Below, one piece after another: positions 1-6,942 of a stretch of DNA of 6,942 nucleotides. How positions within the stretch are numbered: position 1 is the stretch's first letter; every line of letters begins with the position of its first letter. Made by a program: the position numbers and the translations under genes. Source of the DNA: a virus (taxonomy: Duplodnaviria > Heunggongvirae > Uroviricota > Caudoviricetes); IMG/VR virus record IMGVR_UViG_2541047435_000014; one strand, given 5' to 3'. The notes beneath the pieces are model-generated. The model did not search any database. It was not told the DNA's origin and saw only the letters and a list, made by a program, of their open reading frames with translations.

Positions 1-1946
1 ATATTCATGTCATTCTCCTGTTCTGCCTGTATCACTGCCCACTTCATCCAGCCCCTTAACATCCTGCCACGGCCCGTCACCAAACCTGACCTGCAAATGC
101 TGAAAAAAACCTGAACCCGTGTGGCATCTTTGGGGTCAAGAAAGGTCAGTCCGGTGATGAGTGCGCCATCTGTATCCGGGAACCAGCCATTGCTGTTTGT
201 CTCAATAATGTTTCCCGGCCCCAGACGGAACCGTATTTGCGTCTCCCCCGGGTCGCCCTTCGGCCCCTGAGGTCCGGTCGCCCCCACCGGGCCTGCCGCA
301 CCTGTTTCTCCTTTCGGTCCCTGTGGGCCTGCCGGGCCTGCCGCACCGGTATCTCCCTTTGGACCCTGTGGACCTGCATTTCCCGTCAGACCGGTCTCTC
401 CCCGCTCTCCCCTGTCACCTTTCGGCCCCTGCGGGCCTGCCGGACCAGCATCACCTGCCGGTCCCCGTTCGCCGGTTGCCCCGACAGGGCCGGTGTCACC
501 GCGCTCTCCCTTATCACCCTTCGGCCCAGCCGGACCTGCTGGCCCCGTGTCCCCTTTATCTCCTTTCGGACCGGGAACACCACCTCCTGCTGCAGCCTCT
601 TCTGCCTTTGTTTTCGCTTCATTTGCCACATCCATTGCCGCTTTCACCGCTTTCGGGGTGGCAGCCTTCGTTTCATCATCACTGTCCGTTGCGCTGCTTA
701 ACTGCACAATTCCCTTCTGTGCCGTCGTTGCATCAGCCACATTTGCAGCGCTGCCTGCCGGACCTGGCTCTCCACGAGGTCCCTGAGGTCCGGTCTCTCC
801 TCGTTCGCCTCTCGGACCTGCAGGACCAGGTTCACCTCGGGGGCCAGTCTCCCCACGCTCACCTCGTGCTCCCATCGGTCCCTGTGGTCCGGCTTCTCCT
901 CGTTCGCCTTTAGGACCTTGCGGGCCTGCAGGACCTCCCGGATCACCTTTCTCGCCTTTTGGCCCCATATCCCCCTGGTCCCCTTTAGGCCCCCGCTCTC
1001 CGGTATCCCCCTTCAGGCCTGGTATTCCCTGCGGTCCTCGCTCCCCCTGTTCGCCCTTCTCACCACGCGGACCAGCAGGCCCTACAGCCCCCTGAGCACC
1101 AACGTCACCACGCTCACCTTTCGGCCCTGCGGGCCCTTGAGGGCCCACTGGACCTGTTTCGCCTTTAGGACCGACATCCCCCTTCGGACCAGTTTCTCCC
1201 TGAGGCCCCCGGGGCCCCCGTGCATTCTCAGCCATACGTCTGGCCTCTTCAGCACTGACAGTGGCAGCCTCTGCCCGCTTAAGGATCTCTCCGGCGCTCT
1301 CCTGCGCCAGCCTGGCCTTTTCAGCATGCTGTCTGGCTTTTTCTGCATCAGCTCCGGCGGCTTTTTCAGACTCTCCGGCACGGGTCGAGCTTTCCTCTGC
1401 ATTCCCCGCTGCTGTGACTGCACGGGTCGCAGCCTCAGTGGCATCAGTCGCTTTTTGTCCGGCTTCAGCCGCCCTGCTGGTTGCCGTCTTTGCACTGTCA
1501 GATGCACTCTTCGCACTGGCTGCTGCACTTTCTTTTGACTGTGTGGCCTGAGTGTTTTTTGTCGCCGTGTCTTCATTCAGGCGACGAATAGTGGCAAGGT
1601 CATCAGCCACATTATTCTGTATCTGCCGGAAATCTGTCAGCAGTTCTCCGGGTATGCTAACCTCAACAAGACTGCGGCGTAACAGCATATTGAGCGTCAC
1701 CGTACTTTCGGTCCCCTCAATACGCACACGTCCGTAGACAGCAGTCTTCCCTTTCACCGTCACCGAAACCGCATACTCCCCCGGATCCATCGTCATTCCG
1801 TAATATCCACCTTCACGGGTCACTGCCGACGCACTGGTGCCGCTGAGCGCATCCGGTGAAACTGTCAGCGCCGTCAGGGTAATATTTGCTCCTGATATCG
1901 CCTCACCATCAGGAGATTTCAGCGTCCCCGAAACAACAACACTCAC
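1..1946 (-). CDS. Phage tail-fibre protein with collagen-like (Gly-X-Y) repeats; 3' end not closed in this frame (runs off the window edge, see frame break at 103-109)
   Basis: Minus-strand frame open from 1946 to the window edge; absent from the ORF track because there is no in-frame stop. GTG start at 1946-1944 overlaps the upstream TGA (GTGTGA), with SD GGAGGT 5 nt upstream. Translation begins [24 protein letters not shown], passes an Ala-rich segment, then [14 protein letters not shown]... Gly-X-Y repeats, a linker [34 protein letters not shown] resembling the phage tail-fibre repeat motif, a second Gly-X-Y block, and ends [48 protein letters not shown]. Confidence 0.85.
243..587 (-). repeat. 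Collagen-like Gly-X-Y tandem repeat block 2 inside the tail-fibre CDS (about 115 codons)
   Basis: Minus-strand translation [115 protein letters not shown]. Near-identical nucleotide sub-repeats such as CCGGGCCTGCCGCACC occur at about 287-302 and 333-348. Confidence 0.9.
753..1217 (-). repeat. Collagen-like Gly-X-Y tandem repeat block 1 inside the tail-fibre CDS (about 155 codons, one register interruption at GDPGGPAG)
   Basis: Manual translation of the minus strand gives [38 protein letters not shown]...[25 protein letters not shown], with Gly at every third residue. The GC-rich, Pro/Arg-rich plus-strand ORFs in the track are the antisense image of this block. Confidence 0.9.
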
Positions 1947-2593
1947 ACTCCACCTCCGTTAAACACTTTTTTACGGGCAGACAATGCACTGTCTGCCCCC
2001 TGTTTGATCCCAAGTTGCTCAACAAAACTCTGATAATGCTGCGCAGCCAGCCCCGATTCTGCGCCACCGGCAGCATCCTTACTGAAAGCGCGAAACAACA
2101 TCCACTCCACCAGTGGGTTAACATAAGCCTCTTCCAGTGGAACTGGCGTATCATCGTCCTGCGTCAGAACATACACTGCCTCCGGTATCCGGCTTACCAC
2201 TGCATCAATACTTATCTCTTTGTCAGGAGTAGGAAACAGCCAGAATACGCGCGGGGACAGGTCGTTGCTGATAAAACATTCAGGAATACCCTTCATTGTG
2301 GGCCACTCAGGATACTGCGCATCCAGCACCTCCCGGGATAATGGTCTGACTGCACTACCGTCACTGAGGCATATCACGTCAAGAAGTTGTATTACACCAT
2401 CGGGCAAAACCTGACGGGCGCCAGGAACACAACTTATTGTTTCCAGGCTTGCGCCAGCATCCGGTCTCGCCAGAATCACTGCCCTCACAGCATCATTGTA
2501 ATAATCGCACAATTCCTGCAGGGGCCAGCGAACCATCATCGGGTCAACCAGTTGTGTATTCACACGTCCGATGATTTCTGTAATCGTCGTCAT
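1943..2593 (-). CDS. Hypothetical phage virion/morphogenesis protein (216 aa), immediately upstream of the tail fibre
   Basis: ORF-track ORF MTTITEIIGRVNTQLVDP...KKVFNGGGV. Its ATG (2593-2591) overlaps the stop of the upstream gene (TGATG), and its TGA (1945-1943) overlaps the tail-fibre GTG start, indicating translational coupling in one operon. No recognisable catalytic motif. Confidence 0.75.
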   Translation of the reverse strand: MTTITEIIGRVNTQLVDPMMVRWPLQELCDYYNDAVRAVILARPDAGASLETISCVPGARQVLPDGVIQLLDVICLSDGSAVRPLSREVLDAQYPEWPTMKGIPECFISNDLSPRVFWLFPTPDKEISIDAVVSRIPEAVYVLTQDDDTPVPLEEAYVNPLVEWMLFRAFSKDAAGGAESGLAAQHYQSFVEQLGIKQGADSALSARKKVFNGGGV

Positions 2594-3156
2594 CAGAAAA
2601 ACCTCTGCCTGCGTACAGGGTTGCGGTATGAAGAGTACGGGCTTGTCGCCAGTGTATGACGATATGCCCGACGGATCCCCTCAGAAAACTGCACAGAAAA
2701 ATACTGTGCGCGTAACGGATCTGACCATGAAACACCAGTCTGCATGAACAACCGCTCAAGTGCCCCCGCAGCCACTTCTTCAGGCCATGTGAGGAGTTCA
2801 TCCGGTATCTGGCTGCGTCCGGCTTTCGGAGCGACGGCATAAAGCACGCTCACCTCACCGGGAGAACAGGCAAATCGCAGGGAGCGTCCGGAGCTGATAT
2901 CCACATCCCGACCGACAAAAAGCTCATGATTATCGTCAGAGATACGGATGATATGAACGCACTCCTCATCATCTTTGTCATACGGAAGCACGATTTCTTT
3001 TCCTGCTACTGGTACAACAGTAACCTCCCGACGGCACACCAACGACTGGCGGCTGAATGCCACGGCAGCCATTGACAGAGCATCCGTCATCATAATGTTC
3101 AGTGGACCGCTGATATGACGACGGACATACGGTAAAAAATCACTCAGTTCCGCCAT
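2593..3156 (-). CDS. Hypothetical phage structural/morphogenesis protein (about 187 aa; the track's ORF 2593..3264 is probably N-terminally over-extended)
   Basis: Same frame as track ORF 2593..3264. Starting at 3264 would overlap the upstream gene by about 125 nt, whereas the in-frame ATG at 3156-3154 (MAELSDFLPYVRRHISGPL...) has SD GGAG about 10 nt upstream and overlaps the upstream stop (3142-3140) by only 17 nt. Start choice is uncertain: in-frame ATGs at 3093 and 3090 lack an SD. Confidence 0.65.
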   Translation of the reverse strand: MAELSDFLPYVRRHISGPLNIMMTDALSMAAVAFSRQSLVCRREVTVVPVAGKEIVLPYDKDDEECVHIIRISDDNHELFVGRDVDISSGRSLRFACSPGEVSVLYAVAPKAGRSQIPDELLTWPEEVAAGALERLFMQTGVSWSDPLRAQYFSVQFSEGIRRAYRHTLATSPYSSYRNPVRRQRFF

Positions 3157-3601
3157 GCTGTTCAGTCTCCGCAACACGACGGCGAAATGCCTCACGCACC
3201 CGGATACGGAATGCCTCAGCCGTTTCTTTCGGGTCTTTGTGAATATCCAGCTCTTCTGCCTCACACAGCGTCGCCAGCCGTGCTGAGGTGAGCTTACTTA
3301 AATCCACCTCCTGCCCGTTAACAGAAACAACAAAACTGTTCTCCGCTTCTGCCAGCGCAGCAAGCACTCTTTCCTGCGCCTGCTGTGCCTGCCGCAACTG
3401 CTCATTCTGTTGTTGCTTTTTCAGAACATCATCAAGCTCTTCATGACGAACCCAGACATCCGGAAACCCCAGCAGTTGCCAGGCCATCGCGCTGTCAACA
3501 TGCACCGGCTCAAGACGTGGGAACAGCGTGCGACTTCCGGTAATGGTGTCCTTTTTCACGGGTTTTGGGCCGATATAGACAACGGCAATTTTCTCACTCA
3601 T
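3140..3601 (-). CDS. Hypothetical phage protein (about 153 aa) with a Gln/Ala-rich predicted coiled-coil segment
   Basis: Track ORF 3140..3628 (MRAFYPGNYMSEKIAVVYIGPKP...). The ATG at 3628 lies inside a GC-rich hairpin; the in-frame ATG at 3601-3599 (MSEKIAVVYIGPKPVKK...) follows a GGGGAA SD-like sequence just outside the hairpin and U-tract, so it is the preferred start. Central segment KKQQQNEQLRQAQQAQERVLAALAEAE. Confidence 0.7.
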   Translation of the reverse strand: MSEKIAVVYIGPKPVKKDTITGSRTLFPRLEPVHVDSAMAWQLLGFPDVWVRHEELDDVLKKQQQNEQLRQAQQAQERVLAALAEAENSFVVSVNGQEVDLSKLTSARLATLCEAEELDIHKDPKETAEAFRIRVREAFRRRVAETEQHGGTE

Positions 3602-3613
3602 ATAATTCCCCGG

Positions 3614-3637
3614 ATAAAAAGCCCGCATGACGCGGGC
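3614..3637 (-). terminator. Intrinsic-terminator-like hairpin plus U-tract between the 129-aa gene and the 153-aa gene (likely partial terminator or RNA-stabilising stem-loop)
   Basis: Minus-strand RNA GCCCGCGUCAUGCGGGC (6-bp GC stem 3621-3626/3632-3637, 5-nt loop) followed by UUUUUAU (3620-3614), directly upstream of the SD and ATG at 3601. Confidence 0.45.
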
Positions 3638-3650
3638 CGGAAGGTTTTAA

Positions 3651-4040
3651 TCAGTATCCCACCACGGTATAACGCAGCAGAACATTCAGGGTGCCGGTTG
3701 CAGCGGCAGTCTTAATGGTGACAGTAACCAGCTCCCCGTCACGCTGTGTGGTGTACGGCTCCACTGGCACATATCTGGCAAATTTTGCAGAAACAGCTTC
3801 GCTGTTATCGATGAGAGCATGCTCACCGGACTTAATGCTGACGGTTGCAGTACCCAGACCACCCGTTGAAACCAGTTGGAGTGAGTTGATACGGATGCCC
3901 ACTGGCAGTGAGAGAAGATGAATAACACTGTCCGCTTCCGCAGCATTCACCGTAAATACGCCTTCTGCCACCGACTCATTACCGTGCGTACCCGTATAGA
4001 CCCGTTCACTCAGTGACGGGGCAAGGATAGTCTTTGCCAT
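3651..4040 (-). CDS. Hypothetical small phage virion protein (129 aa), immediately downstream of the major capsid gene (possible decoration or head-associated protein)
   Basis: Track ORF MAKTILAPSLSERVYTGTHGNESVAEGVF...LLRYTVVGY. ATG at 4040 is preceded by SD AGGAG with a 9-nt spacer. Function is inferred from position only. Confidence 0.75.
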   Translation of the reverse strand: MAKTILAPSLSERVYTGTHGNESVAEGVFTVNAAEADSVIHLLSLPVGIRINSLQLVSTGGLGTATVSIKSGEHALIDNSEAVSAKFARYVPVEPYTTQRDGELVTVTIKTAAATGTLNVLLRYTVVGY

Positions 4041-4055
4041 AATTAATGACTCCTG

Positions 4056-4078
4056 AAAAAGCCGGGCGAAAACCCGGC
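4056..4078 (-). terminator. Intrinsic-terminator-like hairpin plus U-tract immediately downstream of the major capsid gene
   Basis: Minus-strand RNA GCCGGGUUUUCGCCCGGC (stem 4061-4066/4073-4078) followed by UUUUU (4060-4056), 18 nt after the capsid stop at 4098-4096 and just before AGGAG-ATG of the next gene. Confidence 0.5.
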
Positions 4079-4095
4079 ATAGGGAAAGGAAAAAA

Positions 4096-5310
4096 TCAGA
4101 GCTTCACTGCTGTATCAACGGCAATCACGCCGTGATCCTGCATCTTGCCGCTCTTCTCGGGGAAACGGATTTTTTTCAGACCGTTGATCCAGCTGATTGC
4201 TATCTCAGTACGGTTATCCATATCCGTTTTCTTCTCAACCATGTTGAAGTGACCGCCCGCCTTCTGACCGTAAGCATTTGCCAGCGCCTGAGCCCCCAGT
4301 AACATGGCGCGGTCAATATTGGTTGCAGCAGCGACCTCTTTCGTGGTTGCCGTCAGGTTATTCTCTGATACCAGAACCTTTGACCCCTGATAGAAACGGA
4401 TCGGCATACCCGCATACTTACGAACCAGGATATTGCGCCACATCGCACATTCACCTTTGAACAGCGGATGATTAAAACCTTTTGCACGGTTCACGGCACG
4501 AACCATCATCTGGTTCCAGTCCTTACCGGACGTCGAGGTGTACCAGTCATTCCACTGACGCGGCGTGACGTACAGGACGTAATATGGATCTTCTCCGTGA
4601 AGTTCATCACCGGACAGACGAACCGGCTGTAACGGATGCGCCATTTCGTCAATGAACAGGGAGAGATTGTCCACCAGGCCAATAGAAAAAATATCTGCCG
4701 CTTCAATCTGCTCAAAGCTTGTCGCATCACCGCCAAAAAAGTGACGGTCATGTGTCGGAGGCAGTACATCGTTGATCATGATTTTTTTGAATTCAGGGTG
4801 CTCCGCTGTCGGCAGAATAGTGTCGTCAGCAACAAAATCACCACGAGCTCCAGCAAGATGCACTATCGCACACTGGTCCTGCAGGTCATTAAAGTACGTC
4901 CCCAGAAGCGTTCTGGCTGAGGATGCCAGGTTAAACTTCGTGCGCTGCTGACTCATACGTCCGCCTGCATCCACCAGGTGACGTCCCTGATTGATTTTCA
5001 GGGAGAAGTCAGCATGGCTGAGATCCTCACCACGACCTTCAACACGCTCATCTCCCATCGTCGGACGTTTTGAGAGTTTGTGCATGATGCTGAAGGTCAC
5101 TTCATCACCGGCCTGTTTGTTAAGGTCTGTGATACGGACAACCGGCGCACCCGCGCTGGTCTGCTTCGTGCTTTTCTTGTCCGGCGAAACCGCTTTTGGC
5201 GCTTCCTGCTGTTCAGTGAGGATATTTACCATCGAGCGGTTGCGGTTGGCAGCGGTAAAAAGCGCCACCTGATACAGCTTATTCGCCTGGGCTGATGTTA
5301 CAGTCGTCAT
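4096..5310 (-). CDS. Phage major capsid protein (404 aa)
   Basis: Track ORF MTTVTSAQANKLYQVALFTAANRNRSMVNILTEQ...VIAVDTAVKL. Sits directly after an acidic scaffold-like gene (23-nt intergenic, SD AAGGAG) and is followed by a hairpin. Size and position fit a major capsid protein, and the sequence resembles prophage major capsid proteins of enterobacteria by recollection, with no search run. Confidence 0.85.
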   Translation of the reverse strand: MTTVTSAQANKLYQVALFTAANRNRSMVNILTEQQEAPKAVSPDKKSTKQTSAGAPVVRITDLNKQAGDEVTFSIMHKLSKRPTMGDERVEGRGEDLSHADFSLKINQGRHLVDAGGRMSQQRTKFNLASSARTLLGTYFNDLQDQCAIVHLAGARGDFVADDTILPTAEHPEFKKIMINDVLPPTHDRHFFGGDATSFEQIEAADIFSIGLVDNLSLFIDEMAHPLQPVRLSGDELHGEDPYYVLYVTPRQWNDWYTSTSGKDWNQMMVRAVNRAKGFNHPLFKGECAMWRNILVRKYAGMPIRFYQGSKVLVSENNLTATTKEVAAATNIDRAMLLGAQALANAYGQKAGGHFNMVEKKTDMDNRTEIAISWINGLKKIRFPEKSGKMQDHGVIAVDTAVKL

Positions 5311-5333
5311 TACTTCAGTTCTCCTTCAGTAAG

Positions 5334-6341
5334 TTACCCGAGCTTCTCCAGAAGCGCGTCTATTTCAGCATTCGTCATACCGCGCATAATCGCCTCTGCC
5401 TCTGAATGAGAAGCGCCAAGTAACCGTTCAAAATTATCACCGGTTCCGACGGAAGCCGTGGTGCCTAAATCTGACGGGGAAGCAGGTACTGCCTGCTCCT
5501 GTTCAGCGGTCTTCACTTTCTCTTCCGCCGTTTTCCGGATATCCGTTTTGTCTGCCTTGTTGTCAGCAGACGACTCACTGACTTCACCGAAAGCAACCTG
5601 CGTACGACGGGCCACTTCAGCGAAACGTTCAGTGAGCGTTTTGTCTTTCCATGCGGGGTCATTCTGGAGCTTCCCGTCGATGGATACAGCAACCGAGAAG
5701 CGATCTGGATCGGACTCCTGCCACGTTTTCAGCACCGGCACGGCATTCATCGCATCAAGAACCGGTGATAAATCCTCACCACCATTACCTTCTGCCTGCT
5801 GTGCTGATTGCTGAACACGGGACTGGAGATAGTTATTTTTACGGATGAGCGAAGCCACCGCGTCACCAATTTCCGGATACATCTCCCTGATACGGGCAAT
5901 CTGCTCATCAGAAATTTTTTCGTTTTCCGGTAACGGTGTGGGCTTCATACCGGCCTGGTGGATCTGAGACGTCAGCAGTTCCACCCTGCGTTTTTCTTCA
6001 GCTATCTGCCCACGAAGAAGTGCGGCTTCCTGTTCGGCCCGTTGCTTACCGGAACGTTCAGCCTCAAGGACTTCATAGGGAATGACGTGTTTACCGTCGC
6101 GGGTGAGCACCCCCTTCGCTTCCGGCTCCTTCACGTCCTGCGTCTGCTCCACACTGGCATCCGGCGTCGGTGCCACATTGTTATCGCCCGTCTGAGTCTG
6201 TGCTTCCTCATCCGCATGTTTTTCCGTGGTATCTTCCGTCACGACGTCCTGTGCGTGACTGTCAATATCCACATCCCCAAGTCCTTCCAGCATTTTTTCC
6301 AGTTGTTCCGGGGTTTCTTCACCCGTAAATTCAAAATCCAT
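5334..6341 (-). CDS. Phage scaffolding protein (335 aa, highly acidic, predicted coiled-coil)
   Basis: Track ORF MDFEFTGEETPEQLEKMLEGLGDVDIDSHAQDVVTEDTTEKHADEEAQ... is rich in Glu/Asp/Ala/Gln with heptad-like segments (RAEQEAALLRGQIAEEKRRVELLTSQI). SD GGAG is 8 nt before ATG 6341, and the gene lies immediately upstream of the capsid gene, the typical scaffold position. Confidence 0.75.
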   Translation of the reverse strand: MDFEFTGEETPEQLEKMLEGLGDVDIDSHAQDVVTEDTTEKHADEEAQTQTGDNNVAPTPDASVEQTQDVKEPEAKGVLTRDGKHVIPYEVLEAERSGKQRAEQEAALLRGQIAEEKRRVELLTSQIHQAGMKPTPLPENEKISDEQIARIREMYPEIGDAVASLIRKNNYLQSRVQQSAQQAEGNGGEDLSPVLDAMNAVPVLKTWQESDPDRFSVAVSIDGKLQNDPAWKDKTLTERFAEVARRTQVAFGEVSESSADNKADKTDIRKTAEEKVKTAEQEQAVPASPSDLGTTASVGTGDNFERLLGASHSEAEAIMRGMTNAEIDALLEKLG

Positions 6342-6450
6342 AAATAACTCCGCATGGTCTGTTTATCGGACAGATCCGAATGGTTGAGTAAATAAGGCTT
6401 ATCGCTGCCCCCGCGAATAAGCGCACCGCTCCCGGAACGCTTACCTCCGG

Positions 6451-6478
6451 AAACAAAAAACCCCGTACGATGACGGGG
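6451..6478 (-). terminator. Rho-independent terminator (minus strand) upstream of the scaffold gene
   Basis: Minus-strand RNA CCCCGUCAUCGUACGGGG (6-bp stem 6461-6466/6473-6478, 6-nt loop) followed by UUUUUUGUUU (6460-6451), 20 nt after the stop of the short remnant ORF ending at 6499. Confidence 0.55.
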
Positions 6479-6498
6479 TTCAGTTGAAGCCAGAGTTT

Positions 6499-6591
6499 TC
6501 AGAGCGACATTTCATTCATCCGCTGTTGTAACGTATACAGCATCTGTTGCTGAAGAACGTCCTGCTCCTGTTCCATATTCTGTACGCCGGT
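6499..6591 (-). pseudogene. 3' terminal remnant (30 codons plus stop) of a gene apparently truncated by the IS66-family insertion
   Basis: The minus-strand frame is open across the putative IS boundary and reads TGVQNMEQEQDVLQQQMLYTLQQRMNEMSL then TGA at 6501-6499, followed by a strong terminator. No credible SD or start lies in the flank, so a C-terminal fragment is more likely than a complete small gene. Identity of the original gene is unknown. Confidence 0.3.
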
Positions 6592-6592
6592 A

Positions 6593-6942
6593 GTAAGCGT
6601 ACAGCGAGGGCCGTATTGACGGGGATGTGTTATTCAGCTGGCAGTGCTATGCGCCACGGAAGCAGTTCGCTGACCCGGTTGACCGGCCAGTCTGCTATGA
6701 CGCCAAGCACATGGCGAAGGTAGCTTTCTGGATCCACGTCATTCAGTTTGCACGTCCCGATCAGGCTGTACAGTAGCGCTCCCCGCTCACCACCATGATC
6801 AGAGCCGAAGAACAGGAAGTTTTTACGACCCAGACTGACCGCCCGCAGGGCATTTTCAGCGATGTTGTTGTCGATTTCCACCCAGCCATCGTTCGCATAG
6901 TACGTCAGTGCCGGCCACTGGTTAAGTGCGTACGCGAACGCC
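6593..6942 (-). mobile_element. Terminal part of an IS66-family insertion sequence (element continues beyond the right window edge)
   Basis: The plus strand reads GTAAGCGTACAGCGAGGGCCGTATTGAC from 6593; IS66-family termini characteristically begin GTAA. It lies 34 nt outside the stop of an IS66-type transposase C-terminus, with composition changing at the junction. The exact boundary is plus or minus a few bp, and the other end and 8-bp target duplication are outside the window. Confidence 0.6.
6630..6942 (-). CDS. IS66-family transposase (TnpC-like), C-terminal fragment; 5' end beyond the window
   Basis: The minus-strand frame is open from the window edge to TAA at 6632-6630 and translates [103 protein letters not shown]. 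This matches the conserved C-terminal region of IS66-family transposases (LGRKN-[FWY]-LF-GSD-GGER...LPW). The track lists only the GTG-initiated tail 6630..6881. Confidence 0.85.

Follow-up and report, generated by a model that had tools for sequence, protein, structure and literature searches.

The window, by which is meant the whole 6,942-nt stretch of DNA analysed here, is composed of two kinds of sequence. From position 1 to 6592 it is phage DNA with 99.92% identity to phage 933W (AF125520), from which it differs by four substitutions and one single-base gap; from 6593 to the right end it is the terminal part of an insertion sequence. The long ORFs all lie on the minus strand and, read from right to left, the phage part contains the 3′ end of the portal gene (L0114 in 933W), followed by L0115, the capsid gene L0116, L0117 to L0120 and the tail-fibre gene L0121. 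The encoded proteins are also very close to those of VT2-Sakai/Sp5: of six compared, the counterparts of H0131–H0135 are 100% identical, including the capsid protein (404/404 residues, H0132), and the counterpart of H0136 matches at 214 of 216 residues. The features that bear on the junction are collected in Table 1.

Table 1. Features of the phage–IS junction and the adjoining head genes, in window coordinates
Feature	Position	Strand	Basis or remark
Major capsid protein gene (933W L0116 / Sp5 ORF62)	4096..5310	-	PF13252 Phage_capsid_3, 1.5e-88; phrog_334 major head protein
335-aa head-assembly gene (933W L0115 / Sp5 ORF61)	5334..6341	-	335/335 aa identical to VT2-Sakai H0131
Native terminator-like hairpin with T-run, 3′ of the portal stop codon	6458..6481	-	9-bp stem, 5 GC pairs
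Detached portal 3′ remnant (933W L0114 / Sp5 ORF60), residues 685–714 and stop	6499..6592	-	Identical to the 933W portal C-terminus
One copy of the 8-bp target-site duplication CGCCGGTA	6585..6592	.	Second copy past the far IS end in CEC03102
Terminal 350 bp of ISEc8 (IS66 family)	6593..6942	-	100% identical to phage 1717 ISEC8 and to the CEC03102 IS
ISEc8 terminal inverted repeat, starting GTAAGCGTACAGC	6593..6614	.	Compared with the far-end reverse complement in L001
TnpC (IS66-type DDE transposase), C-terminal 103 codons and stop	6630..6942	-	Pfam, PHROG

The head gene nearest to the junction, the homologue of L0115 and Sp5 ORF61, encodes a protein for which a Pfam search gave no match and which falls in PHROG into phrog_479, a family of unknown function. 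The sequence-only reading of the window had called this gene a scaffold gene; the name was drawn from gene position alone, and is best regarded as putative and unverified. Scaffolding proteins are needed for procapsid assembly but are absent from mature virions, and their deletion leads to aberrant or spiral coat assemblies. In Sp5, ORF61 is essential for head formation, its deletion leaving no head-like particles, and virions are not labelled by an anti-ORF61 antibody (PMC5155283). Mondal et al. 2016 assigned no role to ORF61 and tentatively gave scaffolding to ORF65, and it is the ORF65 deletion that shows the spiral-capsid phenotype typical of scaffold mutants (PMC5155283). The counterpart of ORF65 in the window is the L0119 homologue at 2593-3264. 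The longest minus-strand ORFs for this gene and for the L0118 homologue (3140-3628) overlap by 125 nt, and PGAP chooses starts that make them shorter (564 and 462 nt, respectively). Where these two head genes, one of them the proposed Sp5 scaffolding gene, truly begin is thus uncertain.

The left end of the window has its own peculiarities. Two substitutions and a 1-bp deletion, at positions 58, 109-110 and 191, distinguish it both from 933W and from the three closed genomes discussed below. The deletion, which leaves CC instead of CCC after an A7 run, lies in the tail-fibre gene (minus strand, from 1946 to beyond the left end) and shifts the frame of the last ~34 codons of L0121/ORF67, so that the ORF runs off the window. 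It is found in no complete E. coli genome, the best match being 99.6% with the gap as the sole remaining difference. It may stem from faulty sequencing or assembly where the contig ends within a multi-copy repeat; alternatively, the prophage may have acquired a second inactivating mutation, here in an essential tail gene. In the closed genomes the tail-fibre ORF is intact, 645 aa long and identical to 933W L0121, and PGAP splits the gene there (window 9-1946, corresponding to 2710-4647 of L001, the CEC03102 locus) into two CDSs and a pseudogene fragment. The collagen-like Gly-X-Y repeats of the protein seem to confuse its annotation, and they create many long spurious ORFs on the plus strand of window 1-1600. 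The segment encoding the tail-fibre C-terminus (window 1-260) occurs at a median of 10 places per genome, and the IS at the other end of the window, ISEc8, is present in at least 10 copies in O157. Both window ends thus lie in multi-copy sequence and the contig is bounded by repeats, which suggests that the window is a whole short-read contig broken at repeats.

The change from phage to IS is abrupt. A 643-bp query spanning the junction, in which bases 1-293 are window 6300-6592 and base 294 is window 6593, was compared by megablast with phages and with 5426 complete E. coli genomes, and the homology breaks exactly at 6592/6593. Phages of the 933W type match 6300-6592 at 100% and their match ends at 6592; copies of ISEc8, of which there are thousands in E. 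coli, match at 100% from 6593 onward. With the feature annotated ‘insertion sequence:ISEC8’ in the Stx2 phage 1717 (FJ188381) as the reference, all 350 bases of window 6593-6942 are those of the first 350 bp of the element. The ORF that enters the window from the right, with its stop codon at 6630-6632, matches PF03050 DDE_Tnp_IS66 (2.9e-18) and PF13817 DDE_Tnp_IS66_C (1.8e-17) in Pfam and the transposase families phrog_1631 and phrog_688 in PHROG. Elements of the IS66 family have imperfect terminal inverted repeats starting 5′-GTAAGCG, and one such end lies inside the window.

On the phage side of the junction, a minus-strand frame open across the break (6499-6591) gives 30 codons, TGVQNMEQEQDVLQQQMLYTLQQRMNEMSL, followed by a stop. 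These are portal residues 685–714, the first residue or residues of which come from the duplicated target. The intact 933W portal has 714 aa and matches PF16510 P22_portal over residues 31-648 (1.4e-128, 430 bits against a cut-off of 26.1) and the PHROG portal family phrog_156 (1.8e-254); its nearest solved structure is the portal 8jov (E=1.6e-62). The portal gene directly follows the gene for terminase-L in 933W, Sp5 and CEC03102. Of 193 phage collection records, 192 contain the portal C-terminal region in full length, and the insertion site is uninterrupted in 418 of the 5426 complete E. coli genomes; the ORF end at 6499 therefore belongs to the 714-aa portal gene. The alternative that 6499-6591 is a complete short gene is ruled out, since all uninterrupted relatives read through the site as a 714-aa portal. 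Much of what had been proposed for this end of the window is thus borne out: an IS66-family element with its terminus at 6593 and its transposase ending at 6630, a 30-codon C-terminal remnant followed by a terminator-like hairpin (running from 6481 to 6458 on the minus strand), a head gene within about 250 bp of the IS (its start codon is 251 bp from the IS end) and a landing site inside a phage gene, which can now be named as that of a P22-like portal.

The remnant has also attracted a wrong name. In CEC03102, CEC08123 and NCCP 14541, RefSeq/PGAP calls it a ‘poly(3-hydroxybutyrate) depolymerase’ pseudogene, over a span equivalent to window 6499-6597 (L001 9200-9298); on a portal remnant this label is a misannotation. 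A different portal fragment is present in KP869107.1 (Escherichia coli O157 typing phage 9), where positions 40238-40360 hold only the last 41 portal codons, at 100% identity, as an isolated Stx-phage head gene fragment in an otherwise unrelated phage record.

The whole junction is present in three closed E. coli O157:H7 clade 8 chromosomes, those of CEC03102, CEC08123 and NCCP 14541, with 99.96% identity over the entire window, and these are the only three of the 5426 complete genomes with ISEc8 at the portal site. The window reaches 350 bp into ISEc8, and the far side of the element was read from one of the three, CEC03102 (locus L001), which is 100% identical to the window over 192-6942, all differences falling within 1-191. 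The IS is complete there, with 2442 bp (L001 9294-11735) of which 2441 are those of the phage 1717 copy. It carries tnpA (PF01527 HTH_Tnp_1, 126 aa) and tnpB (PF05717 TnpB_IS66, 115 aa), both beyond the window, and the full TnpC of 512 aa, with LZ_Tnp_IS66, zf-IS66, DDE_Tnp_IS66 (2.1e-106) and IS66_C domains. Its two ends both start with GTAAGCGTACAGC and show an inverted match of 13/13 bases, and of 18/22 over the first 22. The sequence CGCCGGTA flanks the element on both sides (L001 9286-9293 and 11736-11743) and occurs once in 933W, where the site is empty (L002 8286-8293).

Beyond the IS in CEC03102 lies the rest of the portal gene. The upstream portal ORF follows 933W for 686 residues with no mismatch, then continues with GKRTA and a stop, five codons into the IS. 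The net change to the portal is the loss of the last 28 of 714 residues and the gain of five IS-coded ones, so that the entire PF16510 domain and a further 38 residues are kept. The order of genes is terminase-S, terminase-L, portal(1-686), ISEc8, portal remnant, next head gene and capsid gene; this is the canonical order with 2450 bp interposed, and no neighbouring gene has been lost. The sequence-only reading had suggested that the 8 bp at 6585-6592 would recur as a direct repeat past the far IS end and that the interrupted ORF would continue there, and CEC03102 has both. Its further suggestion, that the IS replaces the expected portal and terminase neighbourhood, does not hold, as the two terminase genes and portal(1-686) are directly past the element. 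These genes seem to be missing because the window runs out after 350 bp of a multi-copy repeat; a contig broken off in this way can give the impression of a ‘replaced’ neighbourhood.

Target duplications of 8 bp also flank two other ISEc8 copies that were examined. All three duplications begin with CG (CGCCGGTA at the window site, CGATAACC at locus L007 and CGATGATT at locus L005), which may be chance with n=3.

The structure at this locus is thus very probably the product of a simple transposition, in which a complete ISEc8 entered the 3′-terminal part of the portal gene in a 933W/Sp5-type Stx2a prophage of O157:H7 clade 8. The 2442-bp element (tnpA-tnpB-tnpC) jumped into CGCCGGTA, 28 codons short of the portal gene's end, and the 8-bp staggered target was duplicated on insertion. 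The last 30 portal codons are stranded downstream of the IS, where they are untranslatable; directly past the element come the remainder of the portal gene and the terminase genes. For the genome from which the window itself derives, it is predicted from the near-identical closed genomes that the IS is complete and that portal and terminase follow it.

It could instead be supposed that the IS marks a rearrangement, in which a deletion next to it, or recombination of one ISEc8 copy with another, removed or displaced portal and terminase and so decapitated the head module. The window ends within ISEc8 and so leaves the far side unseen, at least 10 places per O157 genome match the junction query (mostly ISEc8) and could recombine, and the window differs from all three closed genomes at three places in 1-191. 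However, in CEC03102 the insertion is simple: the 8-bp duplication is intact, and terminase and portal follow directly. The window is 100% identical to this genome over 192-6942, and a secondary rearrangement would be an extra and unsupported event. Such a rearrangement is very improbable. Scarcely credible is an assembly chimera, in which a short-read contig wrongly joins phage to ISEc8 where there is no real insertion. Short-read contigs typically end in multi-copy sequence, as the window does on both sides, and the 1-bp deletion seen only here, close to the left end, may be an error, but the same junction is found in three independently closed genomes. A perfect target-site duplication around a full-length IS, as in CEC03102, is not something that a chimera would produce.

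A reading that deserves more attention, though it seems to us somewhat unlikely, accepts the insertion as real but holds it to be near-neutral: a portal lacking 28 residues would still assemble and package DNA, and the prophage would remain inducible and infectious with ISEc8 as a passenger. The full P22_portal domain is kept, the sense strand inside the IS is free of terminator-like sites and ISEc8 is carried by other Stx phage records. By analogy with P22 and Sf6, the lost residues would correspond to the distal tip of a C-terminal barrel-like extension. In those phages the distal barrel is unfolded in the procapsid or without density in the virion, and a P22 portal core of residues 1-602 still assembles into a ring (PMC5290284, PMC9728967). 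With a barrel that is disordered there and dispensable for ring formation, the truncated portal might still work. Against this, the PHROG portal profiles reach to within five residues of the portal end and 184 Stx phage records are 100% identical over the 115 C-terminal residues, which suggests constraint, although records as close as these, all identical, contain too little divergence to judge it. The phage genome is also enlarged by 2450 bp, and Miyata et al. count head genes hit by an IS as inactivated (PMC9997748), a presumptive assignment.

The insertion by simple transposition favoured here would thus leave a portal whose function is plausibly, rather than demonstrably, lost. In Sp5, whose portal is identical in protein sequence, deletion of the portal gene (ORF60) abolishes packaging, plaque formation and lysogenization, and the need for the gene in DNA packaging was established by deletion and complementation (PMC5155283). 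Loss of function is graded only as plausible because ISEc8 removes no more than the distal C-terminal tip. Virion production is probably impaired, and might be abolished, by the combination of a truncated barrel tip and 2.45 kb of extra DNA; a reduced virion output would contribute to fixing the toxin prophage in the chromosome. There are two less expected outcomes: the truncated portal may still work, so that the Stx2a phage spreads ISEc8 as cargo, or the truncation may block a late step, such as headful sensing or ejection. These are unlikely, but if a late step were blocked, the prophage would be a naturally occurring mutant from which the function of the distal barrel tip could be defined for 933W-type portals.

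The IS genes and the phage late genes point in the same direction. An outward promoter at the IS end, or a terminator inside ISEc8, could in principle alter expression of the downstream head genes, and was rejected: consensus scans found no sigma-70-like site in 6250-6942 or in ISEc8, and no terminator-like site on the sense strand inside ISEc8. The hairpin that follows the portal stop codon is phage rather than IS sequence, since the region is 100% identical to 933W-type phages, and in all of these it is part of the late operon, separating the portal gene from the head gene that follows. Late transcription in 933W-type phages presumably passes it by Q antitermination. As this native hairpin is already passed and the IS has no sense-strand terminator-like site, the late operon should still be transcribed through the IS from the Q-antiterminated late promoter. 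The stx2a gene, which lies upstream of the insertion, would be unaffected.

Stx prophages are well known to carry IS insertions in their morphogenetic genes. The presumed effect is that the toxin prophage is immobilised but still produces toxin on induction. An ISEc8 in a Stx prophage portal gene is in this respect an ordinary event that adds little new: the element, the phage and the carrier genomes are already public and the general phenomenon has been published. A full-text literature search for ISEc8 together with Stx2a and portal found no paper. In practice, the junction can conveniently serve to mark one sublineage of O157:H7 clade 8.

The prophage of CEC03102 carries stx2a and is located between yfdC and argW. 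CEC03102 and CEC08123, both sequenced by Miyata et al. 2023, are O157:H7 clade 8 strains of genotype SG8_32 that harbour a delta-subtype Stx2a phage (PMC9997748). In this population-genomics study, every Stx2a phage of the closed genomes carried at least one IS, and five of 14 delta Stx2a phages were reported to have head or tail genes inactivated by IS insertion (PMC9997748). The region covered by the window has been hit independently in sister clade 8 strains. In CEC01302 and CEC01311, ISEc8 lies in the 5′ part of the H0136/DUF6682 gene, in the opposite orientation and with the duplication CGATGATT (L005 2878-5319); in 61_150228 and F690, IS1203 lies between the capsid gene and the next gene (L006 ~4330-5650). 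The ISEc8 of CEC01302 and the IS1203 of 61_150228 are independent insertions.

The locus can be placed among known systems at several levels. Its head module has the gene order of 933W and Sp5, but in both of these phages the 714-aa portal gene is uninterrupted, whereas in the lineage of the window it is split by ISEc8. The delta Stx2a prophages at argW of CEC03102 and CEC08123, and strain NCCP 14541, have the same junction as the window, with the IS and its duplication confirmed in CEC03102, and differ from it only by the two substitutions and the 1-bp deletion at the left end. As no complete E. coli genome matches over all 6942 bases, the window would come from a fourth close relative, or from a draft of one. 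The ISEc8 of phage 1717 shares with the CEC03102 copy its length of 2442 bp, the GTAAGCG... termini, the three ORFs and an 8-bp target duplication, but is located between an HNH endonuclease gene and dnaB rather than in a portal gene; likewise, the ISEc8 of CEC01302 lies in the H0136 homologue. The IS629/IS1203 and ISEc8 hits in other O157 Stx2a prophages represent the same phenomenon in the same head and tail module, but affect a different gene and, in the case of IS1203, involve a different IS family.
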